Source: Nitrosopumilus sp. (lineage in GTDB: Archaea; Thermoproteota; Nitrososphaeria; Nitrososphaerales; Nitrosopumilaceae). From it: a stretch of DNA of 64,000 nucleotides. The translations under genes and the position numbers were made by a program. This document shows positions 6,351 through 19,746 of this stretch, piece after piece. The notes under the pieces were generated by a model, which saw nothing but the letters and a program-made list of their open reading frames with translations, was not told where the DNA came from and did no database searches. The first letter of the stretch is position 1, and each line of letters starts with the position of its first letter. The DNA lies in assembly GCA_965203315.1 (NCBI GenBank), contig OZ241857.1:832001-896000 (forward strand), read 5' to 3'.

Positions 6351-8114
6351 CTATGCCTCATCTTGAGGTGGTTGCTCAGGTGGGTCTGTCACAGGTGGAG
6401 TGAATTTGTACGAATCTGCATGTGTGCCTATCAGTCTAGCCTTATCATTTGTGCCATATAGTATAATATCATAGTCGCCGGCGGTTAGAGAGATCGTAAA
6501 TGTCGCGTTGTTGTCAGCGATGCTGGTACTGCCACGTGTTACAGTGTCGTCAGAGGCGGTTACAATCCAGTGGATCGTACTTGGTCGGAGTGCTTTGACT
6601 GTGTCGCTTCCAGAGGCAAAGTTCTTTTCCTCAAACGTGTATGAAAATTGTATGCCAGTTGAAGAATTTGTGGCAGATATGTTCAGGTCAAATATCTTTG
6701 CTATCTGTCTAGACTGCTCCTTTTTAATGACACCAAATTGGCACACTACATCATCACTCAACTGTACACTAGTACCTTGAGGAAGATGGACTGTACCGGG
6801 CGCATTACGAATTGTACCGGGCGCAAAGTTTGTACTGCTGTCAGCATCTGGCAGCTGTATGATCAAGCCGTTATCTAATTTTTTATAGAATATTGGAGCT
6901 GCATTATAGTATAGTGGAGAACCACTAGAGCTGGTACTGTATACTCGTTTGTTGTTTATGGTATTATCGGTTTCAAAAAAGAATGCGATCAAACGACTAG
7001 TATCACTGTCACCAAATAGATCGTTTGAGATGGTTGCGTTATAATATCTAGAACCGCCACGTTCTTCGATAAAGGTGGAAGGCAGAGAGATGGAAAAGAC
7101 ACCAGTATCCTTCTTTATAATCACAAAGACTTTACCATCGAACTCGGTTTGACCCGTTGAAAATTTCAAGACAACATCTTGATCGGGAGTCATCGATACT
7201 GTATAGGATATCTTGTGACGCTCTTGGCTGCACTTTGGCATTGAGAGGTATTGCGTCATAATATCTTTATTTTGTGCAGTAAGGGTCGTGCTGTTTATCA
7301 TGTTGGAGTAATCTTGATGAGTGTATGTAGATCCAAGTTGGCTAGATGTAGAACTTGTAGATTGTGTACCTGGATTGAGGTTTATGGGATTTGCCGGTGT
7401 GGTTACGGTGTCTGCTGCACCGTAAAAGCCAGTCAGTCGTTTTGTAATGATGACCATATCATCACCATGTTTGCCGTAACATACAGTATTGTTACCTTTG
7501 AGGACATTGTTTGTATCGATCAGGTCAGTTGTACATACGGGGATTGGTTGAGCATCTAGTATGTTGTCACGTGGGGAAAAGTAGAATGGTTTTTTGTCTG
7601 CCTTGTCATATATGGTAACTCGCATGTCCCTGGCGATTATCAACGGTTGGTTAGAGGCAGCTTCAGGATCTGGTGAGCAACTTCCACCGCCTGTAACTTG
7701 AAAGTCTAATCCGTATGCAGATAGTCTATTCTTTTTGTTAGGTTCTATATTGTTGGGTATGTCAAAACCTGGAACACGTTTTGCGTTGAGCCATTTAACA
7801 CGCTCAAAATTTGCATGGCATTGAGTGGTAGAAGAGCCCACAAGCGCAGGGTGCTCTAATGTCATAGCGTACGGTACAATATAGAGATCAGCTGTAGTTT
7901 TTTCTGAGACGTCAACTAGTCTAGAAGCGGCACTAGCATAGTGCATACGACCATATTCGTCTGGATAGAAATAAACTTGAGAAGACGATGTCTTGTTGGT
8001 TATAGGAGTGATGGTTAATAGATCACTAGTTGCAAATGCATCATCTAGCTCAACTATCAGAAACGGTATAACTGTTATTAAAACTAGAACAGGGATCAGA
8101 TGACGCTTGTTCAA
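6351..8114 (-). CDS. Secreted/surface protein, paralog of 15538-19323 (one copy of a Cys-containing repeat module)
   Basis: Signal peptide MNKRHLIPVLVLITVIPFLIVELDDAFA; module QPIPVCTTD...CYGKHGDDMVIITKRLTGFYG; beta-rich C-terminus. Confidence 0.85.
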   Translation of the reverse strand: MNKRHLIPVLVLITVIPFLIVELDDAFATSDLLTITPITNKTSSSQVYFYPDEYGRMHYASAASRLVDVSEKTTADLYIVPYAMTLEHPALVGSSTTQCHANFERVKWLNAKRVPGFDIPNNIEPNKKNRLSAYGLDFQVTGGGSCSPDPEAASNQPLIIARDMRVTIYDKADKKPFYFSPRDNILDAQPIPVCTTDLIDTNNVLKGNNTVCYGKHGDDMVIITKRLTGFYGAADTVTTPANPINLNPGTQSTSSTSSQLGSTYTHQDYSNMINSTTLTAQNKDIMTQYLSMPKCSQERHKISYTVSMTPDQDVVLKFSTGQTEFDGKVFVIIKKDTGVFSISLPSTFIEERGGSRYYNATISNDLFGDSDTSRLIAFFFETDNTINNKRVYSTSSSGSPLYYNAAPIFYKKLDNGLIIQLPDADSSTNFAPGTIRNAPGTVHLPQGTSVQLSDDVVCQFGVIKKEQSRQIAKIFDLNISATNSSTGIQFSYTFEEKNFASGSDTVKALRPSTIHWIVTASDDTVTRGSTSIADNNATFTISLTAGDYDIILYGTNDKARLIGTHADSYKFTPPVTDPPEQPPQDEA

Positions 8115-8198
8115 TAATTCCCCCCCAAGGCGTTTATAAAAGTATCGATCAGTGGTTCGTAAGCAATTAACCTGACAACGACCTTGTAGTGTTTTGAG
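8115..8198 (-). promoter_or_regulatory. Promoter cassette: TATA box TTTATAAA (8133-8140) and G7 tract before the TTG start
   Basis: Homologous to 19324-19414; C7 run at 8120-8126 on the + strand. Confidence 0.7.
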
Positions 8199-8300
8199 GC
8201 ATCATGTTAGTTAATCGTATGTTTTTGAGTGATATCTTGCATCGCTTGTTTTCATACAAGTACAGTGAACTTAAATTAAAACGATCAAATCAGAGTATCA

Positions 8301-9095
8301 ATGGATATGATAGATGTACTAAAGGAGGCTTCAAAACGGATTTATGAGGATGTCAAAGGACTTGCAGGGACACCAGCAGCGGCAGGAGACTTTGGGGTCG
8401 GTGCAGGGGGAGATATTTCTAGAAACATAGACATTACAGCAGAGGCTTCAGTGTTAGATTTTCTGCGTGAGATGAAATTTGACGGAATTGTTCTAGGTGA
8501 AGAATGTGGTCCTGTACAGTTCGTCATAGAACCAAAAGGCTGCATAATAATGGATGCGATAGATGGTTCGGCAAACGCCGTAAGAGGATTACCATTCTTT
8601 TGTAGTTCGCTAGCATATGCTACAGGTGATACGCTTGGTTCAATAACGGACGCCGTGGTTACTGATCTATCAAACGGAGACATGTATTGGGCTACAAGAA
8701 ACAGAGGCGCGTATCTAAATGGAGTCAAAATATCTACATACGAGTACAATCCAATATATCGCATAGTTGGAGTAAACACATCAGGAGCAACACCAGAGCT
8801 GATGCGACAAATGGACTCTATATTCATCAACAATCATACTAGACATCTTGGTGCGAATGCATTAGAGATGGCCACACTTGCAAAAGGATCGATGGACGTC
8901 TTTATAGATCTACGAGAAAAGATCAGAGTTCATGATATTGCAGCTGGTTATCTAATAATAAATGAGGCAGGCGGTATTATCTTAGATAAAGAACTCGATA
9001 CATTAGATGCAACGATCAGTTATGATACTCGAATATCATTTATTGCAGCTGCCAACCAAAAGATCCTAGACGAAGTAATGTCAGATATGAGATAA
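8301..9095 (+). CDS. Inositol monophosphatase / fructose-1,6-bisphosphatase family
   Basis: VLGEE, DAIDGSANAVRGLP and HDIAAG motifs. Confidence 0.92.
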   Translation: MDMIDVLKEASKRIYEDVKGLAGTPAAAGDFGVGAGGDISRNIDITAEASVLDFLREMKFDGIVLGEECGPVQFVIEPKGCIIMDAIDGSANAVRGLPFFCSSLAYATGDTLGSITDAVVTDLSNGDMYWATRNRGAYLNGVKISTYEYNPIYRIVGVNTSGATPELMRQMDSIFINNHTRHLGANALEMATLAKGSMDVFIDLREKIRVHDIAAGYLIINEAGGIILDKELDTLDATISYDTRISFIAAANQKILDEVMSDMR

Positions 9096-9826
9096 ATGAC
9101 AATGTAAATCGACACTATAGGGTATCGAAATAAAGTATTTCATATATTGAAATCAAAGTATATTGTACAAATTCCCAGAACAGAATTCTGTAAGAGTGGA
9201 ATTATAATATAATGGAACAAAGATTAGAGAACTCTCATTGCACAATAGAGAGATGTCTACAGGAGACCGTATTCATAATTCAATTTTGGCCAATATTGGT
9301 GTTTGAATATTTTTGCGTGATGTGACGTGATTTGAGCTATTCCATTTATGTTGGGTTTTAATATATATGCAGATCTATAAATTCACAACATATTGTAAAT
9401 TTACCTCTAGGATATCAAAAATTTTGTCAAAAATTTTCATCAATATTAAACTAAACAGGAAATATGCATAGTGGTAAGTGTGTATTTTGGTTTATGTCAA
9501 GATGATCGTGGCGAGTATCAAGAGAGAACCGAATTGTGAATAGGGTCTAGGGGATTATTACTATACATAAGAGATAGAATTAGTTCTAATGATGAAAAAC
9601 TAAAAACCAAGACATGCATTATACTGTAAAGGCAACAAGATCGGCCATTCAATCATATGTACAATGACACATACATCTAAGAGACTCCAGATCGGACCAT
9701 GATTTATTGAATATTTTGTTGTACATTTGTACCATATTGCAGAATTCGTGCATTCATATCAGACATCAGTAGATTAGACGAAACGATAGGAAATCATATT
9801 ATATCCAATGGTACTATAGATACATC

Positions 9827-10666
9827 ATGGTATCAGAGGTAAAGGCAAAGATAACCTACATGGAGTTGATTAAAGAAGATCTTGTAATAATACGCATAGT
9901 TCCAGAGAACGGTATGCCAGATTACAAGACAGGTCAGTTTTTGACGATTGGTGTTCCAATACCATCAGAGAAGAAGATAGTCAGGCGCGCATACTCGATT
10001 GCATCACATCCTGAGAATAAAGACTATTTTGAATTTGTTATACGATGGGTTAGAAAACCATTGCCAGGTAGAGTTACAACCGAGTTATTTTATGCAAACG
10101 TAGGTGACGAGGTATACATGGGAAGTCCTACCGGTGCTGCTCTACAGATCAGTGATGTACTACCAGATGGTAAAAAAGACAACCGTAGAATAGTCTGTGT
10201 TGGTGGAGGAACTGGACTGGCACCATTTATTGCATTTGCAAAACATCTGCACGACACTGGGGATAAACGCGAAGTTGTTGTATTACATGGTGCAAGTTAT
10301 GTTGACGAGTTGAGCTATAAACGCCTGTTGACCGATCTCGAGTTAGAAAGCGAAAAACAAGGGAGAGACAAATGGAACTTTAAATACCGAGCTGCAATAA
10401 GCAGACCAAAAGAGTTCTTCAACAGATCATGGTCTGGACATGTAGGCAGAGTAGAGTCATTCTTCAAACCAGGCAAGACAGGCATGTCACCTCTAGAAGA
10501 GATGGTAGGAGAAGAGATTACACCAAACAATACAATAATCTACATCTGTGGATATCAGGGAACTATTGATGGAGTCTTGGGTTATGTTGAGTCAAAAGGA
10601 TTTGTAACTGAACAAGAGAAGAAGCCAGATGGTAGTTTTGGAGTAAAGTACGAGTCATATGGATAG
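9827..10666 (+). CDS. Ferredoxin-NADP(+) reductase family protein (paralog 1)
   Basis: GQF, RRAYSIAS, GGTGLAPF, YICG and terminal ESYG. Confidence 0.92.
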   Translation: MVSEVKAKITYMELIKEDLVIIRIVPENGMPDYKTGQFLTIGVPIPSEKKIVRRAYSIASHPENKDYFEFVIRWVRKPLPGRVTTELFYANVGDEVYMGSPTGAALQISDVLPDGKKDNRRIVCVGGGTGLAPFIAFAKHLHDTGDKREVVVLHGASYVDELSYKRLLTDLELESEKQGRDKWNFKYRAAISRPKEFFNRSWSGHVGRVESFFKPGKTGMSPLEEMVGEEITPNNTIIYICGYQGTIDGVLGYVESKGFVTEQEKKPDGSFGVKYESYG

Positions 10667-10759
10667 AATTGGTGTTCAGACAAGTTTGATAGTCACTTGA
10701 AAGATATCATAAGATATTAGTCAAGAAATGGGCACCAACAGGACAACTTTGCTATATTC

Positions 10760-10876
10760 GGATCTCTTCGATTTACATTGGATGATATTTCGTAGGACTT
10801 TTCTGTAATTTTTCCCCATAGAATCTTGCAGTGCTTTTTCTGTAACCGTTCTATCCTATGTGAACCGAAAAGATCC
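10760..10876. mobile_element. MITE family A copy
   Basis: GGATCTCTTCGATTTACAT ... ATGTGAACCGAAAAGATCC; 117 bp; TTC/TTC flanks. Confidence 0.85.
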
Positions 10877-10963
10877 TTCAAAGTGCCTAATCTGAATAGT
10901 AACTTGACACCATGCAAGATATCTGTCTGTGGATTTTTATATTGATTAATGCGTGAACAACAT

Positions 10964-11125
10964 ATGGCAAAGCTGAGATGTAATGACTATGGTTTTGAGT
11001 GTGAGTTTGTTGCAGAAGGTGAGATAGAACAGGTCATAGAAGAGTTTAGGACTCATACTGATGACGAACATGGAATAGATTATTCAAAAGAAGCCGTTAT
11101 GCAGTTTATACTACGAAAACAATAA
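10964..11125 (+). CDS. Small metal-binding protein (DUF1059-like), 53 aa, absent from the ORF track
   Basis: MAKLRCNDYGFECEFVAEGEIEQVIEEFRTHTDDEHGIDYSKEAVMQFILRKQ; C-x6-C ... H-x4-HG pattern. Confidence 0.85.
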   Translation: MAKLRCNDYGFECEFVAEGEIEQVIEEFRTHTDDEHGIDYSKEAVMQFILRKQ

Positions 11126-12214
11126 TCATGCATCTAGATGTCTCATTCTAGCAGACAAGACAGGTAGTTCTTTTGCAATCAACTTTTCAATAGCTGGTAC
11201 AATACCTGATCGTGCACTGGCATTCTCTTCATATATCTCTGATATCTGATCTCGAAATAATAGTTTGATTCCAGGCAAAGTCGTAATATCTTCAGCGACG
11301 GTTCGCGGATCAGATATATCTAGAATCAGAGTTCCTTTCTTCTTATCTTCCATGACAAGATGTATTCTCTCATAATTGATCAGAAAATAGTCAGATGTTG
11401 TAGCAACAAATACAATATCATATTTAGCAAATCCTGTCAGTACATCAGCAAACTCGACAGGAGTTCCGCCAACCATACTAGTGAATCCGGTAGCACGATC
11501 TATAGTTCTACTAACTACATCATATTTGAGTTGGAGTGAGTTGAGTGTCTTTGCAATCATTGCAGCAGGTGTACCTGTACCCATCAACAGAATATTCTTC
11601 TTTGCGTCAAGACCTGTCTTGTCCTTTACTAGATTGACCGCGACATCGCCAAGAGATAGTACATCTTTGGCGATCCCAGTTGTATCTCGCATTCTCGTTG
11701 CAAGTCGAAAGACGCTATCAAATAGCTTGGTCAGAATATTACCACAAGTTCCAGCACTCTTTGCTATAGAATGAGACTCGACAAGCTCGTTGTATATCTC
11801 TTGTTTACCGATTACAGTGGAGTCGAGACCAGTTGCTAGACGAAGTAGGTTTCGGTACACATCATCACCTTTGTAAACCTCTATAGTTTGATCAAAGTGA
11901 TCGATATCTATCTGCTCAAGCGAGGACAGAGATACCCATGTATCCTTTATCTGGTTTAGAACCAAGCCCTTTCCTTCAGCACGTCTGGCATCAGGCGAGT
12001 CAGTCGTCTCTACATTACTGACAGTAAATATCTCGACTCTGCTGGCAGTTTGAACTACGATGCACTCTTCTACATCTTTGATCTTTTTAAATTCCTCACA
12101 AGCTGCTTTGACGTCTTTGAACGCAAACTTTGATAATGTATGTAGCGGAACGTTCTTGAATGTAACTCTAGTATTCATAACATCAAATCTTACATGTGCC
12201 ACAAGTATCACCAT
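11126..12214 (-). CDS. Glutamyl-tRNA reductase-like protein (divergent HemA paralog lacking the catalytic Cys)
   Basis: LATGLDSTVIG, DIVFVAT and ILDISDPRTV are HemA-like; QTASRVE replaces TCNR(T/V)E. Confidence 0.85.
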   Translation of the reverse strand: MVILVAHVRFDVMNTRVTFKNVPLHTLSKFAFKDVKAACEEFKKIKDVEECIVVQTASRVEIFTVSNVETTDSPDARRAEGKGLVLNQIKDTWVSLSSLEQIDIDHFDQTIEVYKGDDVYRNLLRLATGLDSTVIGKQEIYNELVESHSIAKSAGTCGNILTKLFDSVFRLATRMRDTTGIAKDVLSLGDVAVNLVKDKTGLDAKKNILLMGTGTPAAMIAKTLNSLQLKYDVVSRTIDRATGFTSMVGGTPVEFADVLTGFAKYDIVFVATTSDYFLINYERIHLVMEDKKKGTLILDISDPRTVAEDITTLPGIKLLFRDQISEIYEENASARSGIVPAIEKLIAKELPVLSARMRHLDA

Positions 12215-12889
12215 TCAAGCATGTAACTTGGCGCGTCCACCCTTTGCAGTTCGAAATACATTCATTCCAATAAAATAGTTCTCGTGTAGTGACTCTAGAT
12301 ACGTAATCTTTTCTTGAGCAGCATCAATCTGACGTTGAGTAGCTTCTGGATCTCTCTTCAATTGTTCAAGATTTTGTTGTGCTTCTTCAAGGAATGTGTC
12401 TATACCACGTTCATAGTTTGACATGCCACCAAACTCTGGGCTCAGGACACGTTCTGGATTATATGTAGGTGTTTGGTCTTGTGGAATCTCGACCTTGCGT
12501 GTAAGAGACTCTTGCTCGTCTTGAGATAGGATTGGTCTCGGAAATCTGTCTTTCTTGTCAAGAAAGAACTCTGGCTCGTCCATCTCACGTCTAAATATCT
12601 CCTCACTTTGTCTCTTAAAGGTGTAATCAAGCGCCTTTTTTGTCTCTGCGTTTACCTCAGCCGCAATCGCTTTGTACTCTTCCTCTGCGGCCACTTCTGC
12701 GGCAGCTTTGGCCGTAGCCACTTTTTCCATTGCTGCCTCGAGTGCAAGTTCTGCTTCTACTGCAGCTTTGGCCGTAGCTTCGGCTTTTGCTATAGCAGCG
12801 TCAGTAGTACTATGTTCTTTGGATTCGTCGGCCTTGGGTGCAGTCTCTACATCACCGGATGCCTCGTTAGTAGTCTCTTTTACTGACAT
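12215..12889 (-). CDS. Hypothetical acidic protein with Ala/Glu-rich helical N-terminus
   Basis: Abuts the hemA-like gene; TATA-like TTAAAATC 23 nt before ATG 12889; internal ATAKAA repeat. Confidence 0.8.
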   Translation of the reverse strand: MSVKETTNEASGDVETAPKADESKEHSTTDAAIAKAEATAKAAVEAELALEAAMEKVATAKAAAEVAAEEEYKAIAAEVNAETKKALDYTFKRQSEEIFRREMDEPEFFLDKKDRFPRPILSQDEQESLTRKVEIPQDQTPTYNPERVLSPEFGGMSNYERGIDTFLEEAQQNLEQLKRDPEATQRQIDAAQEKITYLESLHENYFIGMNVFRTAKGGRAKLHA

Positions 12890-13001
12890 TAGTAATTTAT
12901 TCAAGTTGCTTAGATTTTAATATTCTTTTAGTCTTGCTCGATAAATATTGCGGCAGATCGATGACATAGTGACTAGATCGATGCGTTTTGGATTCCTCTC
13001 A

Positions 13002-13118
13002 TGATCTCTTCGATTTACATGAGATATAATTTTCACAGAAAATACTACAAAATTCCATATGGAAGATTTAGGGGAAAAGTTTTGCAAAATAACATACCAC
13101 GTAGATCGAAGAGACTCC
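13002..13118. mobile_element. MITE family A copy (opposite orientation)
   Basis: GATCTCTTCGATTTACAT ... ACGTAGATCGAAGAGACTCC; next to the tRNA-Asp 3' end. Confidence 0.75.
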
Positions 13119-13134
13119 GCTAGTATCAAGAGTA

Positions 13135-13212
13135 TGGCGCCCTCGGCGGGATTTGAACACGCGTCTCAGCCGTGACAGGGCCGAATTCTAGACCTGGCTA
13201 TACTACAAGGGC
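13135..13212 (-). tRNA. tRNA-Asp (GTC), CCA encoded
   Basis: GCCCTTG acceptor stem, anticodon loop CTGTCAC, TTCAAAT T-loop, ends GCCA. Confidence 0.93.
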
Positions 13213-13311
13213 ACTAGTTTTTGATGACAACATGTTAGATTAAAAGTTTTTGAAAGCGTAAAAAGATCCGTCATGTTACCTTTATATAGTGCATTACTGT
13301 GTATTACGGTA

Positions 13312-13743
13312 ATGCCTAGAAACTATGTTGACTTTGAAATAATAAAAGAGCCATGGAATAAATACAGCATAAGTGACGGAAGTGAGATAAAAACACGATT
13401 TGTGTTGAAATCTGTGTGGCACACTTTAGATAATGGTAAGATAAAAAAATTTATCGAACCAGAACGTTTCATAGTAATAATGTGTGATCCGTCACTTCAA
13501 GGAATGCCTAGTTCAGAGATGCCCAATAAGAGCGAACTTTTGAAAAATATCGAAGTTAACAATTCCAGATACACTACAACCTCATATGACGCAAATGAAT
13601 ATCTTTTGGACGAGGGTACACGAATACTAGTACATAACAACATAACAAAGATATCTCGAACTACACTTTACGATATACGCGGTAATCGAATGTATGATGT
13701 CGATCTTACTGAAAATATAATCATTACTCCACAATCACCCTAA
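13312..13743 (+). CDS. Hypothetical protein with internal duplication
   Basis: TTTATATA box 23 nt before ATG 13312; two similar halves (WNKYSISDGSEIK / ANEYLLDEGTRIL). Confidence 0.75.
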   Translation: MPRNYVDFEIIKEPWNKYSISDGSEIKTRFVLKSVWHTLDNGKIKKFIEPERFIVIMCDPSLQGMPSSEMPNKSELLKNIEVNNSRYTTTSYDANEYLLDEGTRILVHNNITKISRTTLYDIRGNRMYDVDLTENIIITPQSP

Positions 13744-13926
13744 TCAAACGCGATTATTTCATTAGTCTTTTCTGGCTTGTGTGTAATTATTTGAATTATT
13801 TGTCTAGTTGTAGAAGCGGTTGACATCGATAAATTCCTAGTCTCACCATCTCTTAGAAGTATACTATCATCCATGTATGTTATTATGTAGTAGTAATATA
13901 AAATGGTTTGGAGTAGTACGAAAAAT

Positions 13927-13990
13927 TGTGGGATCCGGAAAGTAGTTCGCCCCTCGTTTGATGTGGTATTCTTTAGGCGATTGCTCATTT
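13927..13990 (-). mobile_element. IS481-family right-end remnant
   Basis: TGTGGGATCCGGAAAGTAGTTCGCCCCTC is identical to 49958-49986; the tail encodes EQSPKEYHIK, similar to DESSRDEYRVN. Confidence 0.75.
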
Positions 13991-14137
13991 CGAGTCCCTA
14001 AGCATGTATTGCACCAATAAATCAAACAGATCGCAATCTCGGTTAACCATATGTGAAGCCGAAAAGAAATCGATCAGATGATACCAAGCATGCCAGATCC
14101 AAACGATCGTCTGTAAAACTAGCCAAGATGGCAAAAA

Positions 14138-14486
14138 ATGCAAACAAACACATTACCCACCAAAAAAGTAAAAACAAGAACGATCTATGTTGGAATAGAT
14201 GTTCACAAGAACTCTCTGTATGTGACAGCAATTGATGAAGATGACAACATCTTACTAGACAAACGCATAATGACAAATCACTATAGTGTTGCAGAGACAT
14301 TCAAGCAATTCCCTGTAGACAAGACCCACTATGTAATGGAGTCATCGTCAGTCTGGTATGGATTGTATCGATATATGACAGACGAGTTGGGATTTGATCT
14401 AGTACTATCGAATCCGTACCAAACAAAAGCGATAGCAGCATCAAAGAAAAAGACAGACAAGGTAGATTCAAAGATACTAGCAGAAC
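14138..14486 (+). pseudogene. IS110-family transposase, N-terminal DEDD (RuvC-like) domain only, cut off at a MITE
   Basis: YVGIDVHK, VMESSSVW and KKKTDKVDSKILA motifs; homology stops at 14487. Confidence 0.9.
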
Positions 14487-14605
14487 GGATCTTTTCGGTT
14501 TACGTGGGATGGTATTTTGCAAGACTGTTCTTGCTAAATTTTCCCCATAGAATCTCATAGTGCTGTCTCCATAACCATTCTATCCCACGTAAATCGAAAA
14601 GATCC
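14487..14605. mobile_element. MITE family A copy (best-preserved TIRs)
   Basis: GGATCTTTTCGGTTTACGTGGGAT ... ATCCCACGTAAATCGAAAAGATCC, 23 of 24 positions match. Confidence 0.9.
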
Positions 14606-14735
14606 ACAACTTGTACATGCAAACCAACTCGATGACAGTAGAGGGCGATCATTTATCGAGACAATGTATTGGATTTGTGAGCAGATATGGTGTTTTTGAA
14701 CACAGAGTTCTGAACACATTGATAAAAGAACCAAG

Positions 14736-14809
14736 CGGGTCTAAAGGGATTCGGACCCTTGACAACCGGATTAAAAGTCCGGTGCGCTACCTGGCTGCGC
14801 CATAGACCC
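14736..14809 (-). tRNA. tRNA-Lys (TTT)
   Basis: GGGTCTA acceptor stem; CCGGA-CTTTTAA-TCCGG anticodon arm; T-loop reads TCCGAAT. Confidence 0.92.
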
Positions 14810-15129
14810 ACCAACATAGACTATTGCATGCGTTAATTTAGTCCTTTACTCAGTTAACGCGAATATGTCTTTTTGAACAAGGCGATACAATATTTTACTT
14901 GGATCATTACTTCGAATATATTATGCATACTGTTACATAATTATTTCTAGGCGATTAGAGATATCGAGCCACCAAATTTCTAAAGATAAAAATCGACAAA
15001 ACATACATACTGATAGTCATTTACGTGATATGTGAATCCATTATTTTGTATGTCTGTGCAGTAGCCTTGACTTGAAAAATTCCCAACGATTCATCTTTAA
15101 TGCTCAGTTCGCGTTTACTACATGTAAAG

Positions 15130-15430
15130 GTAAACAGCAGACCATCCTTGAATGCATCCGCTATTGGTTTCTCACAGTCTCTTTGATTCTCTTCCTCATC
15201 CATTCGATTGTATGCGTATAACCGCACAGTCTCTGATCAATCTAGAACTAACGATATGAGATGTGTTTACTATTGTATCATCTATGATGATCTTGAATCC
15301 ATCCCATTTTGTATATTTGACATTACGATAATCAGATACCTTGTGAGTATCGGAGATATGGATCCTTATCGGCTTCATTTGGCCGACATGTTTGATCTTT
15401 TGGTTAAATGAGTTACATTTACGATGCTTG
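15130..15430 (-). pseudogene. Degenerate 5' fragment of the ISH3-type element at 47680-48924
   Basis: KVSDYRNVKYTKWDGFKIIID and CEKPIADAFK match the transposase N-terminus across frameshifts; eroded left end CAAGCATCGTAAATGTAACT. Confidence 0.85.
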
Positions 15431-15537
15431 AGTTGGAAAGATTCAGTTAGAACTATTAGAGCCGATCTCGCTGAATGAAGAACTTGTTCTTTTTTCTATG
15501 AACATTTGTGACGTCTGTATAATCCTAGTGCATAAAC

Positions 15538-18500
15538 TTACTCGGTTAGCCAGCCCAGATTGATCAGTGTTCTAGTGCGAGAGTCCATATCGCCAAACTC
15601 GTAGGTAAAGATATTGTCAATCTCGGCGTATGCTTTTGTCTTGTATGCATCGTATAGCGAGTCACGTAACTCGATCATCTTTTGGGTGTGCCAGTCGAGC
15701 TTGATCTTGAATGGTGTACATATTCTGTCGTTGATATCTGTACATACTGGGAATGTACCAGCGTATGGTGCATATTGTACTATGACAAAGTTGCCAAACG
15801 AGTTGCGACTCCACGTGTTTCCAAATGCGTCTGCCCATAGATCAGAGACCTTGTCTGTTCGTACTAGGACTAGATTGGTTGGACGTATATCTCCTGTATC
15901 TAGTGTGATTCCTGTATGTACTGTTGGTGGTGCATTTAGTGATGTACCGGTGACAAAGACACCTTCGTTCATGTAGTTTATTGCGTTTAATCCCAGTGTG
16001 TCTGTTACTTGTATTGCAAATGGTTCATGGTTCATCACCTCACGGAACAGTACATCCGGAATGGTTACTTGGGTACATTGCAACTCACCACCTGAACAAG
16101 ATGCAGTAGATACGATCGTACCAGTGATGTCATAATCTAGTATGTTGTTTGGGTCATGTACTGTTACGCCTTCGATATAATGGTATGACGGTTCGCTATA
16201 GTTTATACCAAGATTTACAGAAATGTATGCTTCAGCTGTACTCAGTGGAGCGCCCACATTTGGTACACTAAACGCCAGTACGACATTTCTCAACAAGGTT
16301 GGTGCATATGCCTTGAGAGCAAATGTGTGTGTTGTGTTTGTCTGGATTGTATCGCGTTCGTACTGGACATGATATGCGGTAACATCACGACAAGTGTCGT
16401 CCATTTTATAGCCACATGTTACGACTTGTTCACCGGTGAATTGTGATCTACCAAACGTTGGTACAAGTGCAAAATAGTCATCGTCTGAGGGTGGAGGTGG
16501 AGGCTCATCACCTTTATTGAAGTCGATAATATGCGTAGGTACAATTATTGTACCAGCAGTACCATAAAAGCCAGTCAACCGTTTTGTTATAATGACGATA
16601 TCATCACCGTTCTTGCCATAGCACATGATATTATTGCCTTTGAGAGTATTGGTGGTCGTATCGATCATATCAGTTGTACATGCTGGTATCGGTTGGGCCT
16701 TTGTTATGTTTTCACGAGGTGAGAAATAGTATGGATGTTCATCTGTTTTATCATATATGGTAAATCGCATCTCTTTGTCGGTTATGAGAGGTTTGGTAGA
16801 GTTTTTTGTGAGGTCTATGTTACATCCATCTCTTTTGATAAAGTTTGGTCCAAATGAACCCGAGTCAGCGATTAGATTGTCAGGTACTTTAAGAGTGAGA
16901 TTTCCATAATTGTTGTCTGCAATCAAAAGATTGACAATTCTGAATTGAGCTACACACGTACTCTCTTCCGGAAACTCGTTGGGGAGTATCTTTGTATCGT
17001 TTTGTATATGCAGGTCGCCTATTCTAGTGTTTTGGTGACCAGTATATCGTTCACGATCATTACCTGCCAAGTATGCACCAGGAGTAGTAGTTGGGTCAGA
17101 TGTAACAGCTAAAGTTCGACCATCTGCATTCAGTGCAGGAAAGTCCGATGGTGGTGCCAGTGTCAGAATATTGGTATCACGTGGAACGGTAGGTGCGTTG
17201 AGGTCCACGGGACTTTTAGGCAAGTTGACGGTATCGGCTGCACCATAAAATCCAGTCAGTCGCTTTGTGATAATTACCATATCATCACCATGTATGCCAT
17301 AACATATCGTGTTGTTGCCTTTGAGAACATTGTTGTTGCTCGTATCGATCATATCAGTTGTACACACAGGAATTGGTTGAGCTTGAGGTATTCTGTCACG
17401 TGGGGAAAAATAGTAAGGAGTTTTCTCTGCCTTGCCATATATGGTGATTCGCATCTCTTTGGTGGTTATTAGTGGTAGACTAGAGACAGCCTCTGGATCT
17501 GGTGTGCAGCTGTGAAAGTCTAATCCATATGCGTGTACACTACGCAGGGGCGTTTTAGGAACTATATTATTGGGTATGGCAAAGCTTGGAACCTTGTCTA
17601 TGTTTAGAGTTGCAACATGCTCGAAATTTGTAAAACAGTTGTAAGTACTAGTGCCATTAAACAGAGGGTGTACTAGTGTTATGGTATCTTGTGTCAAAGC
17701 GATATCAGCTGTGGGCTTGGTACTATGATCGGAGTATCTATAATCGACACCACCATAGTATATCTTGCCATTGTTAAATTCGTCTGTTTGGAAAGACGCT
17801 TGAGCGTAAGCGTCATCTTCCGCCTCGGTTAATGGCAGTATGGTTAATGCCATCGCATAGGTACTAGCAGGTTCGGTACTTGGAGGTGCTGCATTGAGAT
17901 CCACTGGATTTGTAGGTGTGGTGATGGTATCTGCCACACCGTAAAATCCAACTAGTCGTTTTGTTATAATGACGATATCGTCACCATGTACGCCATAACA
18001 TATAGTATTGTGATCTTTGAGTGTATTGTTGTTGCTTGTGTCGATCATATCAGTTGTACATACTGGGATGGGTTGTGCAGTAGATATGCTGTCAGGTGGA
18101 GAAAAGTAGAAAGGCTTTTTGTACACCTTGTCATATATGGTGACTCGCATCTCTGTGTCGGTGATCAGTGTTTGGTTAGAGACTTTACCAGGATTTGGTT
18201 TGCATTTCTTGTCAAAGCCTAGACCGTATGCAAAGAGTTCATTCTTTTGTGTAGGAGTGATATTATCTGGTACGGTAAACTTGGGACGCATGTTTTTGGC
18301 GAAATCTTTAACACGCTCAAAGTCCATATCACAGCTATACTCACCAGTGCCAGCAAACAGAGTGAGTGGTAGTGTTGTAGTATCACGTTCCAGATAGAGA
18401 TCAGCAGTAGCATCTGTATCCTCGTCGGTGAAATCGGTCATTCTAATAGTGTCTCCTTCATAGAATAATGTGCCGTCATATTCTGTCGTTGATTTAACGC

Positions 18501-19323
18501 TCAGTCCAGTATAATCTTTTTCATCGAATATTGGAGGTATTGATAATGTACCTGGCGGTGTACTAGCTGATCCATACTCTCCTATTTGTGTTGTTATTAT
18601 GACTAGATCATTCTTATACGTACCAGAACACATGCGGGTTTGTCCTTTGAGTTGCTTGGTACTGTTGTCAAAGTTTGCACTAGTACACTCTGGGATCAGT
18701 TGAGCCTTGGTGATATTTTCAAAGTGTGAAGAAAAGAATGCCTTTTTGCCAGCCTGACCATAAATGGTAACTCTCATAGATTTGTCTGTGAGTAGTGGTT
18801 CATTGTTAGAGTTTGCAGTGGTAAGAGCAGAGACGTCGCAGCCATGGGAATAGTCTTTAAAGTCTACACCTATTACTTTAACATCGCTTTCAGGTAAATT
18901 GGTATAGATGCTACCATTGACATTAGTAGGTAGTTTAGCATACTCGTGAATTGCATTAGATGGATTGGCACCAACGTTGTTTACTCCAAACTGGACTGTA
19001 CAGCCAATTGATGTCAATTTAGGGTTTGATAGTATCATTGTGCCCTTGTCTATGGTAATATCTCCTTCAGGTTGATAAACAGGGTCAATTCTATAGTGAT
19101 CATAACTAGTGACAGGAGTAATAGTTGCGCTATTGTTGCTATGTTTGACAAGTGGGATTCCGTTAGAATGAATATCAGTACGTAAACCTGTTGAGGGACT
19201 TAAACCAGGATTCGAATAGCTGTACGGAGGTATAACCGCACCAAACGCATCGTCTAGATCAACTAGTAAAAGTGGTACAACAGTTAACAAGACTAGAACA
19301 GGGATCAGACGATGCTTACTCAA
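15538..19323 (-). CDS. Large secreted/surface protein with four copies of a Cys-containing module plus a distinct C-terminal domain
   Basis: Signal peptide near-identical to 6351-8114; four MR(V/I/F)TIY...QPIPxCT...CYG..GDDxVIITKRLxGFYG-type modules; Pro-rich linker. Confidence 0.9.
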   Translation of the reverse strand: MSKHRLIPVLVLLTVVPLLLVDLDDAFGAVIPPYSYSNPGLSPSTGLRTDIHSNGIPLVKHSNNSATITPVTSYDHYRIDPVYQPEGDITIDKGTMILSNPKLTSIGCTVQFGVNNVGANPSNAIHEYAKLPTNVNGSIYTNLPESDVKVIGVDFKDYSHGCDVSALTTANSNNEPLLTDKSMRVTIYGQAGKKAFFSSHFENITKAQLIPECTSANFDNSTKQLKGQTRMCSGTYKNDLVIITTQIGEYGSASTPPGTLSIPPIFDEKDYTGLSVKSTTEYDGTLFYEGDTIRMTDFTDEDTDATADLYLERDTTTLPLTLFAGTGEYSCDMDFERVKDFAKNMRPKFTVPDNITPTQKNELFAYGLGFDKKCKPNPGKVSNQTLITDTEMRVTIYDKVYKKPFYFSPPDSISTAQPIPVCTTDMIDTSNNNTLKDHNTICYGVHGDDIVIITKRLVGFYGVADTITTPTNPVDLNAAPPSTEPASTYAMALTILPLTEAEDDAYAQASFQTDEFNNGKIYYGGVDYRYSDHSTKPTADIALTQDTITLVHPLFNGTSTYNCFTNFEHVATLNIDKVPSFAIPNNIVPKTPLRSVHAYGLDFHSCTPDPEAVSSLPLITTKEMRITIYGKAEKTPYYFSPRDRIPQAQPIPVCTTDMIDTSNNNVLKGNNTICYGIHGDDMVIITKRLTGFYGAADTVNLPKSPVDLNAPTVPRDTNILTLAPPSDFPALNADGRTLAVTSDPTTTPGAYLAGNDRERYTGHQNTRIGDLHIQNDTKILPNEFPEESTCVAQFRIVNLLIADNNYGNLTLKVPDNLIADSGSFGPNFIKRDGCNIDLTKNSTKPLITDKEMRFTIYDKTDEHPYYFSPRENITKAQPIPACTTDMIDTTTNTLKGNNIMCYGKNGDDIVIITKRLTGFYGTAGTIIVPTHIIDFNKGDEPPPPPSDDDYFALVPTFGRSQFTGEQVVTCGYKMDDTCRDVTAYHVQYERDTIQTNTTHTFALKAYAPTLLRNVVLAFSVPNVGAPLSTAEAYISVNLGINYSEPSYHYIEGVTVHDPNNILDYDITGTIVSTASCSGGELQCTQVTIPDVLFREVMNHEPFAIQVTDTLGLNAINYMNEGVFVTGTSLNAPPTVHTGITLDTGDIRPTNLVLVRTDKVSDLWADAFGNTWSRNSFGNFVIVQYAPYAGTFPVCTDINDRICTPFKIKLDWHTQKMIELRDSLYDAYKTKAYAEIDNIFTYEFGDMDSRTRTLINLGWLTE

Positions 19324-19414
19324 TAATTATCCCCCCCCCCCCCGTGATTTATAAAAGTATAGATTAATGGTTCGTAAGCGGTTAGCCCGACAACAGTTCT
19401 TACTGCGTTTTGAG
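19324..19414 (-). promoter_or_regulatory. Promoter cassette: TATA box TTTATAAA (19348-19355) and G13 tract before the TTG start
   Basis: C13 run at 19331-19343; upstream ~60 bp homologous to 8140-8198. Confidence 0.7.
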
Positions 19415-19433
19415 CACACAAGATATTGAGGAG

Positions 19434-19595
19434 GGTTCTGTTCGATTGACAGAGCGTCAGTTTTGTACAAAATTTTCATTTTGTAAAGTATGGAAATGGG
19501 CCTGTATCGTCTAATGTAAATCCCAATGTTGAGTTGCACAACATGTTTTCCGTGAGATAGTATCATTTTGATCGCAATCTACCATCAACAGAGTC
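19434..19595. mobile_element. MITE family B copy (eroded, reverse orientation)
   Basis: GGTTCTGTTCGATTGA ... TCAACAGAGTC; interior aligns with the reverse complement of 62613-62789. Confidence 0.7.
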
Positions 19596-19746
19596 GAGAT
19601 TATCGAGATCAAATTGCTCAAAAGATCTAAATTTAGAACTCGAGACTTTTTATCATACTCGTGTCTCATCGTGAACTTGTTTCATAGCCATTCTACATCA
19701 AAATTTGAATGCTTTTTGTACTATTCATACTGTTAAAACTACAGAA

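Follow-up and report, generated by a model that had tools for sequence, protein, structure and literature searches.

Two genes on a 64,000-nucleotide (nt) stretch of a Nitrosopumilus genome (the window; G000:C1:832001-896000, that is, positions 832001-896000 of contig C1 of the host genome G000) carry a run of G, seven long in one and thirteen in the other, between the TATA box and the start codon. We propose that these poly-G tracts are archaeal contingency loci, part of a genome-wide hypermutable set whose promoter members act through the position of the 5' end of the transcript; over this account as a whole we are evenly divided. Its parts differ in strength: the tracts are probably hypermutable and kept by selection, we lean slightly towards their changing expression, and the idea that this happens through a displacement of the start site with respect to the start codon is tentative. 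What is observed is the anatomy of the tracts, their enrichment, their spacing, the classes of genes that carry them and their recurrence in other genomes. Window numbering is used below unless a contig is named, and contigs given without a genome belong to G000.

Both genes lie on the minus strand, so that the tracts appear as poly-C on the plus strand. The promoter of the first, an open reading frame (ORF) of 587 amino acids (aa) at 6351..8114 on the minus strand, reads TACTTTTATAAA-CGCCTT-G7-AATTA-TTG. Its TATA 8-mer TTTATAAA, contained in TACTTTTATAAA, occupies 8133..8140 (8140->8133), the G7 homopolymer (C7 on the plus strand) 8120..8126, and AATTA with the TTG start codon (8114->8112) 8112..8119. 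The promoter of the second, a 1261-aa ORF at 15538..19323 on the same strand, reads TACTTTTATAAA-TCAC-G13-ATAATTA-TTG, with the TATA box TTTATAAA at 19348..19355 (19355->19348), the G13 homopolymer (C13 on the plus strand) at 19331..19343, and ATAATTA followed by TTG (19323->19321) at 19321..19330. In each case the tract is in the core-promoter spacer. A preliminary description had given this layout, TATA-spacer-AATTA-TTG with poly-G at 8120-8126 and 19331-19343, and both positions and sequence are reproduced. Its distances of 18 and 24 nt from TATA to start agree with recomputation by script (spacing being counted from the end of the TATA 8-mer to TTG), and G13 is indeed the longest homopolymer of the window (GC 40.5%), the next longest being 7-mers. 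TTG is predicted to be the only usable start of both genes, because upstream there is an in-frame stop or no other start, and no ATG, GTG or TTG follows before the end of the hydrophobic N-terminus: in the 1261-aa gene an in-frame TAA stands two codons upstream, and in the 587-aa gene no other start would retain the signal-like N-terminus. Homology between the two promoters, at about 80% identity, begins roughly 70 nt before the TATA box and runs on through the signal-peptide codons. Their aligned upstream regions (8141..8215 and 19356..19430, both minus strand, repeat family D6) have GTTGTCAGG..GCTTACGAACC..ATAC in common, and no second TATA box is evident in the conserved 70 nt.

What do these genes encode? 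The 587-aa protein is a paralog of the product of C1:1253600, the 1261-aa protein contains internal repeats of about 230 aa, and both have signal-peptide-like N-termini. A Pfam search of the two returned no family, the best score of an ESM Atlas search for relatives was 0.84, under the useful range, and AlphaFold2, run on the N-terminal 300 aa with a 6-row alignment, gave no usable fold (pLDDT, the predicted local distance difference test, 31). The products had been called surface proteins; the one feature that speaks for this is their N-termini, and the Pfam and atlas searches gave no match to add to it.

Where would transcription of these genes begin? By the classical rule, the archaeal start site is set by its distance from the TATA box. 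In a survey of ORFs of at least 150 aa whose start lies d nt after TTTA[TA]A[TA]N, starts of all codon types number 29, 31, 29, 20 and 23 at d = 21-25, versus 3-16 at d = 5-20 and 5-14 at d = 26-33. Measured from TATA to ATG, the spacing has its genome-wide maximum at 21-23 nt and a shoulder that reaches 25 nt, in agreement with the 21-23 nt previously noted for housekeeping genes. This leaderless ATG peak implies that initiation would fall at positions 22-24 after the 8-mer. The G13 gene, at 24 nt, fits the leaderless spacing of the genome, and the G7 gene, at 18 nt, does not. In the former the A before TTG is position 24 and is itself preceded by T, giving a predicted mRNA start of A-UUG; in the latter positions 22-24 are the AAC codon that follows TTG, and the signal sequence ends before another ATG is reached. 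The spacers of 39 ordinary leaderless promoters are A/T-rich (G 13%, C 16%) and their longest G/C run is at most 2 in 36 of the 39; a run of 9 occurs in one spacer, which belongs to a tract gene. The setting is archaeal: the tract does not lie between the -35 and -10 hexamers of a sigma-70 promoter, and the element upstream of it is a TATA box at archaeal distance.

A mechanism can be proposed from this geometry, in which three things are inferred: that slippage is frequent, where transcription starts, and that expression is affected. The tract would take up the greater part of the stretch from the TATA box to a TTG start without leader, and RNA polymerase would start at a fixed distance from TATA (positions 22-24 after the 8-mer, judged from the leaderless ATG genes). 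Because that distance is fixed, a change in length should move the 5' end relative to the start codon, so that gain or loss of G by replication slippage would slide one along the other. At 23-25 nt (24 nt in the G13 gene) the mRNA would begin at or just before UUG and be translated. At 18 nt, as in the G7 gene, it would begin 3-5 nt inside the ORF, lose the start codon and the beginning of the signal peptide, and the gene would be off. Larger contractions would silence; a single slip would probably tune expression and not flip it, since 23, 24 and 25 nt all occur among the paralogs. G13 is long enough to slip often, and G7, close to the minimum, is probably much more stable; the TATA-to-start spacer, which the tract fills, is a place where its length can alter expression. 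The preliminary description had contraction turning the G7 gene off and expansion turning the G13 gene on. The position of the tract in the spacer, and 24 versus 18 nt against an optimum of 21-25 nt, bear this out as far as they go, and the assignment of ON to G13 and OFF to G7 is plausible but unproven; the two are not, however, two states of one switch, since they belong to different genes whose spacers also differ outside the tract. G7 lacks 5-6 nt and has too few G for frequent slips, so it is most likely a contracted and now rather stable off state, locked or decayed, and not one slip away from expression.

The two window genes belong to a family in which the tract is the rule. Searches with tblastn find 15 members in the genome, and all 15 have a promoter tract, uninterrupted in 14; no tract-free member was found. 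Flank identity runs from 0.94 in the closest pairs to 0.84 among the eight closest pairs listed. All 15 genes begin with TTG, within a conserved AATTATTG or GCTTATTG, and their TATA-to-TTG distances are 24, 25, 25, 24, 18, 24, 23, 23, 25, 25, 30, 24, 26, 24 and 25 nt. Spacing is thus 23-25 nt in 12 of the 15, with the 18 nt of the G7 gene an outlier. Leaving G7 aside, tract lengths are 11-15, with 13 the length in 6 of the 15. The gene at C1:1253600 (583 aa, 86.8% aa identity), to which the G7 gene is most closely related, has G12 and 23 nt, and G7 therefore looks like a contraction by about 5 nt. Among 60 same-genus genomes the DNA adjoining argH is kept (about 70%) in 51, and the giant gene and its promoter match only the paralogs in G000. 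Its N-terminal 400 aa have matches in none of the 60, and the family alignment, searched against genome contigs, found no relative.

How unusual are such tracts in this genome? The assembly (2.47 Mb, 38.9% GC, 7 contigs, 99.98% complete) encodes an archaeal AmoA and, by its gene content, is that of an ammonia-oxidising archaeon; the closest records to its argininosuccinate lyase are from Thaumarchaeota and Nitrosopumilaceae. Counts of G/C runs drop about 6-fold per added base between lengths 4 and 8 (2066, 446, 77, 12, 2) and then rise again, to 2, 3, 9, 7, 9, 4, 3 and 1 at lengths 9, 10, 11, 12, 13, 14, 15 and 17. There are 38 runs of at least 9 nt and 36 of at least 10, where extrapolation from lengths 4-8 gives well under one. 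Twenty-two of the 38 lie in the spacer between a TATA or TATA-like box and an ORF start, 14 of them in the window-gene family and 8 in five other families, and the promoter tracts are all 9-15 nt long. Eight are just inside one terminal inverted repeat of miniature inverted-repeat transposable elements (MITEs), and five are in or beside genes for a GT2 glycosyltransferase, a GT1 glycosyltransferase, two N6_N4 DNA methylases and one 1774-aa ORF; three have no placement in these classes. With G7 the promoter set comprises 23 genes (15 of the family and 8 others). A hydrophobic N-terminal segment scoring at least 2.0 is found in 23 of 23, versus 218 of 1743 ORFs of at least 150 aa (12.5%), the 23 forming about six unrelated N-terminal families whose members are not independent of one another. 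The tract flanks differ between these families, and independent origins of the tracts are therefore favoured. The excess is genome-wide, as in sets of contingency loci, and falls on secreted-protein, glycosyltransferase and DNA-methylase genes, which by analogy is the classical contingency-locus repertoire. Also in favour of the proposal, mismatch repair is not recognisable in this genome, neither a MutS_V nor a NucS_C domain having been detected.

In the genes outside the promoter class, the effect of length was followed by changing the tracts in silico and reading the frames. A G12 near the 3' end of the GT2 glycosyltransferase ORF (C1:1531753-1531764) ends the protein at 309 aa; at +1/-2 its length would be 567-568 aa. 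The GT1 glycosyltransferase gene has a C10 in its 5' part (C1:1542267-1542276) and yields 55 aa as assembled, against 366-375 aa, a normal size for the family, at +/-1. In the 1774-aa ORF a G12 lies within the signal-peptide codons (C1:743037-743048), and an ATG with a hydrophobic N-terminus is in frame only at G11 or G14; this gene appears to be switched off in the assembly. All three are otherwise intact and are out of frame at the tract as assembled. In-frame GT1 alleles were sought in a collection of 5.8 billion proteins, in which only the genome's own protein was found. Of the two N6_N4 DNA-methylase genes, one has a C10 ten nt before its stop (C1:697399-697408; 406 aa, or 521 aa at -1) and the other, encoding 869 aa, a G11 nine nt upstream of its TTG (C5:308223-308233). 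Both are candidates for phase-variable methylation.

The arrangement is not confined to this genome. A search for runs of at least 11 G was positive in 9 of 24 genomes of the genus (mostly closed) and in 0 of 16 drawn from other genera of its order; in three genomes (G009, G017 and G007) several such runs lie upstream of signal-peptide ORFs, not in the TATA-G-start arrangement. The pattern TTTAWAW-N1-8-G9 has 32 overlapping matches in G000 versus 0 for the reversed control, and is found in 3 of 150 other same-genus genomes and 7 of 400 genomes of the order. Signal-like N-termini follow the tract in G164 (four paralogs, G11/G12, start 29-30 nt from TATA), G152 (G9, 26 nt), G106 (G12, 22 nt, TTG start), G467 (G11, 25 nt) and G411 (G13-G16, 30-36 nt); the matches in G221 and G306 are not before signal-like N-termini. 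The clearest parallel is in another genus, where eight paralog promoters of secreted-protein genes (G247:C1, loci L220-L227; about 494 aa shown) read TTTATAAG-CAAT[CT]-tract-(A)[CT]GGTAT-ATG. Their tracts are pure in six (G11, G10, G13, G11, G11, G12) and interrupted in two, and the distances, 22, 22, 24, 23, 20, 22, 23 and 23 nt, are the leaderless optimum. Read from these promoters, the TATA-tract-start design recurs with unrelated proteins and in other genera. Six metagenome stretches that matched the promoter pattern were rejected, all being unrelated chance matches. Taking the parts together, one may conjecture, with more doubt than confidence, a 'phasome' of about 30 loci (the 23 promoter tracts plus the intragenic and flanking ones), in which the 5' end slides over the start codon and which has arisen repeatedly in ammonia-oxidising archaea; its driver would likely be virus or grazer pressure on the cell surface.

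Could the poly-G instead be a fixed cis-regulatory element? It might bind a regulator of secreted-protein genes; or, from about -19 to -7, it might stiffen the DNA and hinder melting, leaving promoters weak or conditional, with the differences in length incidental. The position just after the TATA box, which the tract always takes, is a typical one for archaeal repressors, and the tract marks a single functional class, as the 23 of 23 signal-like N-termini show. A fixed element would also suit the narrow range of tract lengths in the family, the spacing held at 23-25 nt, and the appearance of the same design where the start is 29-39 nt from TATA. It does not explain the frame-breaking tracts of the glycosyltransferases and the giant protein, nor those of the methylases and the MITE ends. 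Spacer tracts moreover occur in both the G and the C orientation (the latter at C1:644372), promoter tract lengths spread over 9-15 nt, and two of the G247 paralogs hold the spacing but have lost the purity of the tract. We regard this explanation as unlikely, and it remains live.

Also live, and given somewhat less credence still, is a neutral origin, in which G runs longer than about 8 nt would expand to an equilibrium of 11-15 for want of mismatch repair and be spread by duplication and by mobile promoter or MITE cassettes, without any adaptive part in switching. The bimodal distribution of lengths is as expected of such a process, the genome is rich in copies of insertion sequences (IS), and MutS and NucS were not found (no MutS_V or NucS_C domain was detected in G000, with positive controls in 11 and 6 of 14 reference genomes). 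The eight tracts at MITE ends control no gene there. A by-product would not, however, be expected to settle on one promoter position in about six unrelated families that differ in their flanks, and across at least four genera, nor to fall so often (22 of 38) in TATA-to-start spacers, when ordinary leaderless spacers are nearly free of G/C runs longer than 2 (36 of 39). It also leaves aside the likeness of the gene classes to bacterial phase-variable repertoires and the way in which total spacing is kept as tract and flanks vary.

A third explanation, very improbable in our view, makes the G run an extended Shine-Dalgarno-like element: the mRNA would be leadered and would come from a promoter further upstream. 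The usual Shine-Dalgarno distance is indeed kept, the gap from tract to start being 5-9 nt in the VK/MK family and in all but one of the 15 family genes, which has 12 nt. But every one of the 15 has a conserved TATA box 3-6 nt before its tract, a transcript beginning 22-24 nt after that box would exclude the tract, and the conserved upstream 70 nt offer no second TATA box. A search of G000 for the 16S 3'-end motif that would pair with such an element gave no match.

Contigs from the Logan collection for four sequencing runs of two studies (X1-X4, the four of eight listed runs that cover most of the region, X1 and X2 being the same sample) were aligned to window 7800-19700 at 90% likeness, a level at which contigs of paralogs can also align. 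That the tract lengths are a sequencing or assembly artefact is rejected as next to impossible: homopolymers are error-prone in long-read assemblies, and a minor one-base-shorter contig is present, but independent contigs of two studies match the assembly across the tracts, which stand moreover at homologous sites in 15 paralogs and in genomes of other species. The G13 tract, for which the preliminary description had left an assembly artefact to be checked, is spanned ungapped by majority-depth contigs of X2 and X3 (19316/19314-19700), and G7 by contigs of X1, X2 and X4 (8079/8080-9293). X4, at depth 102, has no length difference at G13. A contig one base shorter at 19331 is found in X1, X2 and X3 (one study) and not in X4, at depths of 84, 101 and 39, where single-copy sequence has about 354-398, 198-211 and 387-494, and its share differs between X1 and X2 despite their common sample. 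It is compatible with a G12 sub-population, with stutter of the polymerase chain reaction (PCR) or of Illumina sequencing, or with a contig from a paralog promoter. Alternate contigs of the assembly were considered as second alleles and rejected: C2, C3 and C7 have no duplicate, and the start common to C1 and C5 holds no tract.

What weighs against the proposal that these are contingency loci working through the start site? No run has a different majority length at G7 or G13, and the variation seen is the one-base-shorter minority of one study. Promoter pairs differ by only 0-1 nt in the tract at 0.84-0.94 flank identity, fewer than MITE pairs, which differ by 2-4 nt at 0.88-0.92 and in which spacing should not matter. 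With 12 of 15 paralogs at ON-like spacing in the consensus, the family resembles one whose expression is kept by stabilising selection more than it does a mixture of ON and OFF. The G7 gene is intact, and compared with C1:1253600 its ratio of nonsynonymous to synonymous substitution (dN/dS) is 0.38 at a dS of 0.21, which indicates purifying selection and fits ill with long-term silence. All 15 family genes use TTG, as opposed to the ATG of ordinary leaderless genes (39 ATG-initiated ORFs at 21-23 nt far outnumber GTG or TTG starts at that spacing), and non-AUG starts are poor on leaderless mRNAs, which leaves the leaderless reading insecure. Tract and flanks do seem to compensate in the family (G11 occurs with 5+9 or 6+8 nt of flank, G14 with 3+6), and without the 18- and 30-nt outliers their lengths are correlated at r = -0.76, with a variance as small in 0.34% of permutations (p = 0.003). 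Over all 15, however, r = -0.06 and p = 0.39, the exclusion of the outliers was post hoc and the paralogs are related, so that selection on spacing is suggestive only. Lastly, in G164 (29-30 nt), in G411 (30-36 nt) and at G000:C1:110477 (39 nt) the start lies well past the expected initiation site. Exclusion of the start codon is therefore not the general mechanism, and not the mechanism in G164.

Bacterial pathogens use homopolymer phase variation as a textbook means of bet-hedging. Intragenic poly-G/C loci and phase-variable Type III mod methyltransferases ('phasevarions') are familiar from Campylobacter, Haemophilus, Neisseria and Helicobacter, and the tracts at the two glycosyltransferase genes, at the two N6/N4 methylase genes and in the signal codons of the 1774-aa ORF, as candidate switches, resemble them; this likeness concerns loci of the genome other than the window tracts. 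Promoter tracts have their own precedents. The vlp genes of Mycoplasma hyorhinis, a lipoprotein family, each have a poly-A in the promoter spacer, and the fim promoters of Bordetella contain C-stretches. As in vlp, every member of the present family has its own promoter homopolymer, allowing independent, combinatorial switching; in vlp and fim the spacers are bacterial (-35/-10, or activator to -10) and switching was shown by experiment. In Neisseria meningitidis, according to the accessible part of PMC7864442, porA has a poly-G between -35 and -10 and opc a poly-C at -35, with expression ranging from high to none. The likeness is that of a homopolymer within the core promoter of surface-protein genes; in porA as described there, however, hexamer spacing sets promoter strength, whereas here a length change should move the start site instead.

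By analogy, the nearest described system appears to be the poly-G promoters of tpr genes in Treponema pallidum, as far as the same part of that source describes them. There, tprE/G/J/L and tp0126, of a paralogous outer-membrane-protein family, have promoter tracts of 7-11 G whose length varies within isolates and sets transcription, and the start site of tprL is the fourth nt after the tract (PMC7864442). The effect in tp0126 is through -35/-10 spacing and in the others an undefined one on promoter activity, and ribosome-binding sites are present (PMC7864442). In both organisms, on that description, exported-protein paralogs each have a promoter poly-G near the start site, and other tracts are scattered over the genome. 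The T. pallidum promoters are bacterial and of sigma-70 type, whereas here an archaeal TATA/TFB promoter has the tract before a presumed leaderless start; here, too, the tracts are longer (11-15) and the host is free-living, and both length variation and an effect on expression are predictions.

Has anything of the kind been described in archaea? The survey of Orsi et al., in the part accessible, covered homopolymers only in coding regions of 18 archaeal genomes (PMC2831843). A 2025 review, as far as its accessible text goes, describes multi-locus phase-variable genomes as apparently restricted to pathogens and calls for surveys across archaeal phylogeny (PMC11868660), and the accessible part of PMC13076061 lists no archaeal phase-variable methylase. 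No report of promoter homopolymer switching in archaea was found in the literature searched, whose coverage does not extend to subscription journals. If the proposal is right, a free-living and globally important nitrifier would vary its surface, its glycosylation and its DNA methylation stochastically, with consequences for virus-host dynamics, for biofilm behaviour and for strain-level heterogeneity in culture. Movement of the start site relative to a leaderless start codon would be a new archaeal regulatory principle, and a promoter switch possible only with transcription of archaeal or eukaryote type and leaderless mRNAs. Annotation of such archaea should then take frameshifts at G tracts as states, not as pseudogenes.

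Some features of the assembly and of the repeats may be added. C1 and C5 have a 17.7-kb near-identical start, the first 17,739 bases being exactly identical, which points to a branch of the assembly graph. Many near-identical IS copies, of about 1.5, 1.7 and 2.9 kb, are present in the genome. Between the two window promoters, 71-nt direct repeats (82% identical) stand at 10806-10876 and 14535-14605, with 3.7 kb between them. Contigs of X1-X3 include a joint that skips the 3729 bases between these repeats, as well as other joints there, the shorter side being only 24-33 letters, and the joint may merely reflect a dispersed repeat.

The tract-bearing MITEs are of three types. One family of about 175 bp has terminal inverted repeats GGTTCTTTTAACTTAAC and a poly-G just inside one end, of 15, 11, 13, 13 and 7 nt at C1:199997-200011, 504843-504853, 708217-708229 and 747016-747028 and C5:236993-236999 respectively; the other end has a short C5-C6 run, stable or interrupted. 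Two further types of the same build are found at C1:825908, 909446 and 1075088 and at C1:318570 and 376752. The repeat with its tract (ATACTTTTATAAGATAC-Gn) resembles the family promoter. An element upstream of the window promoters (..CAAGATCGTTGTCAGGCTAACCGCTTAC..) recurs on C5 beside the MITE at 236993, at C1:1278354 and at C1:1070924, and once directly abuts a MITE end, and may belong to a mobile cassette.

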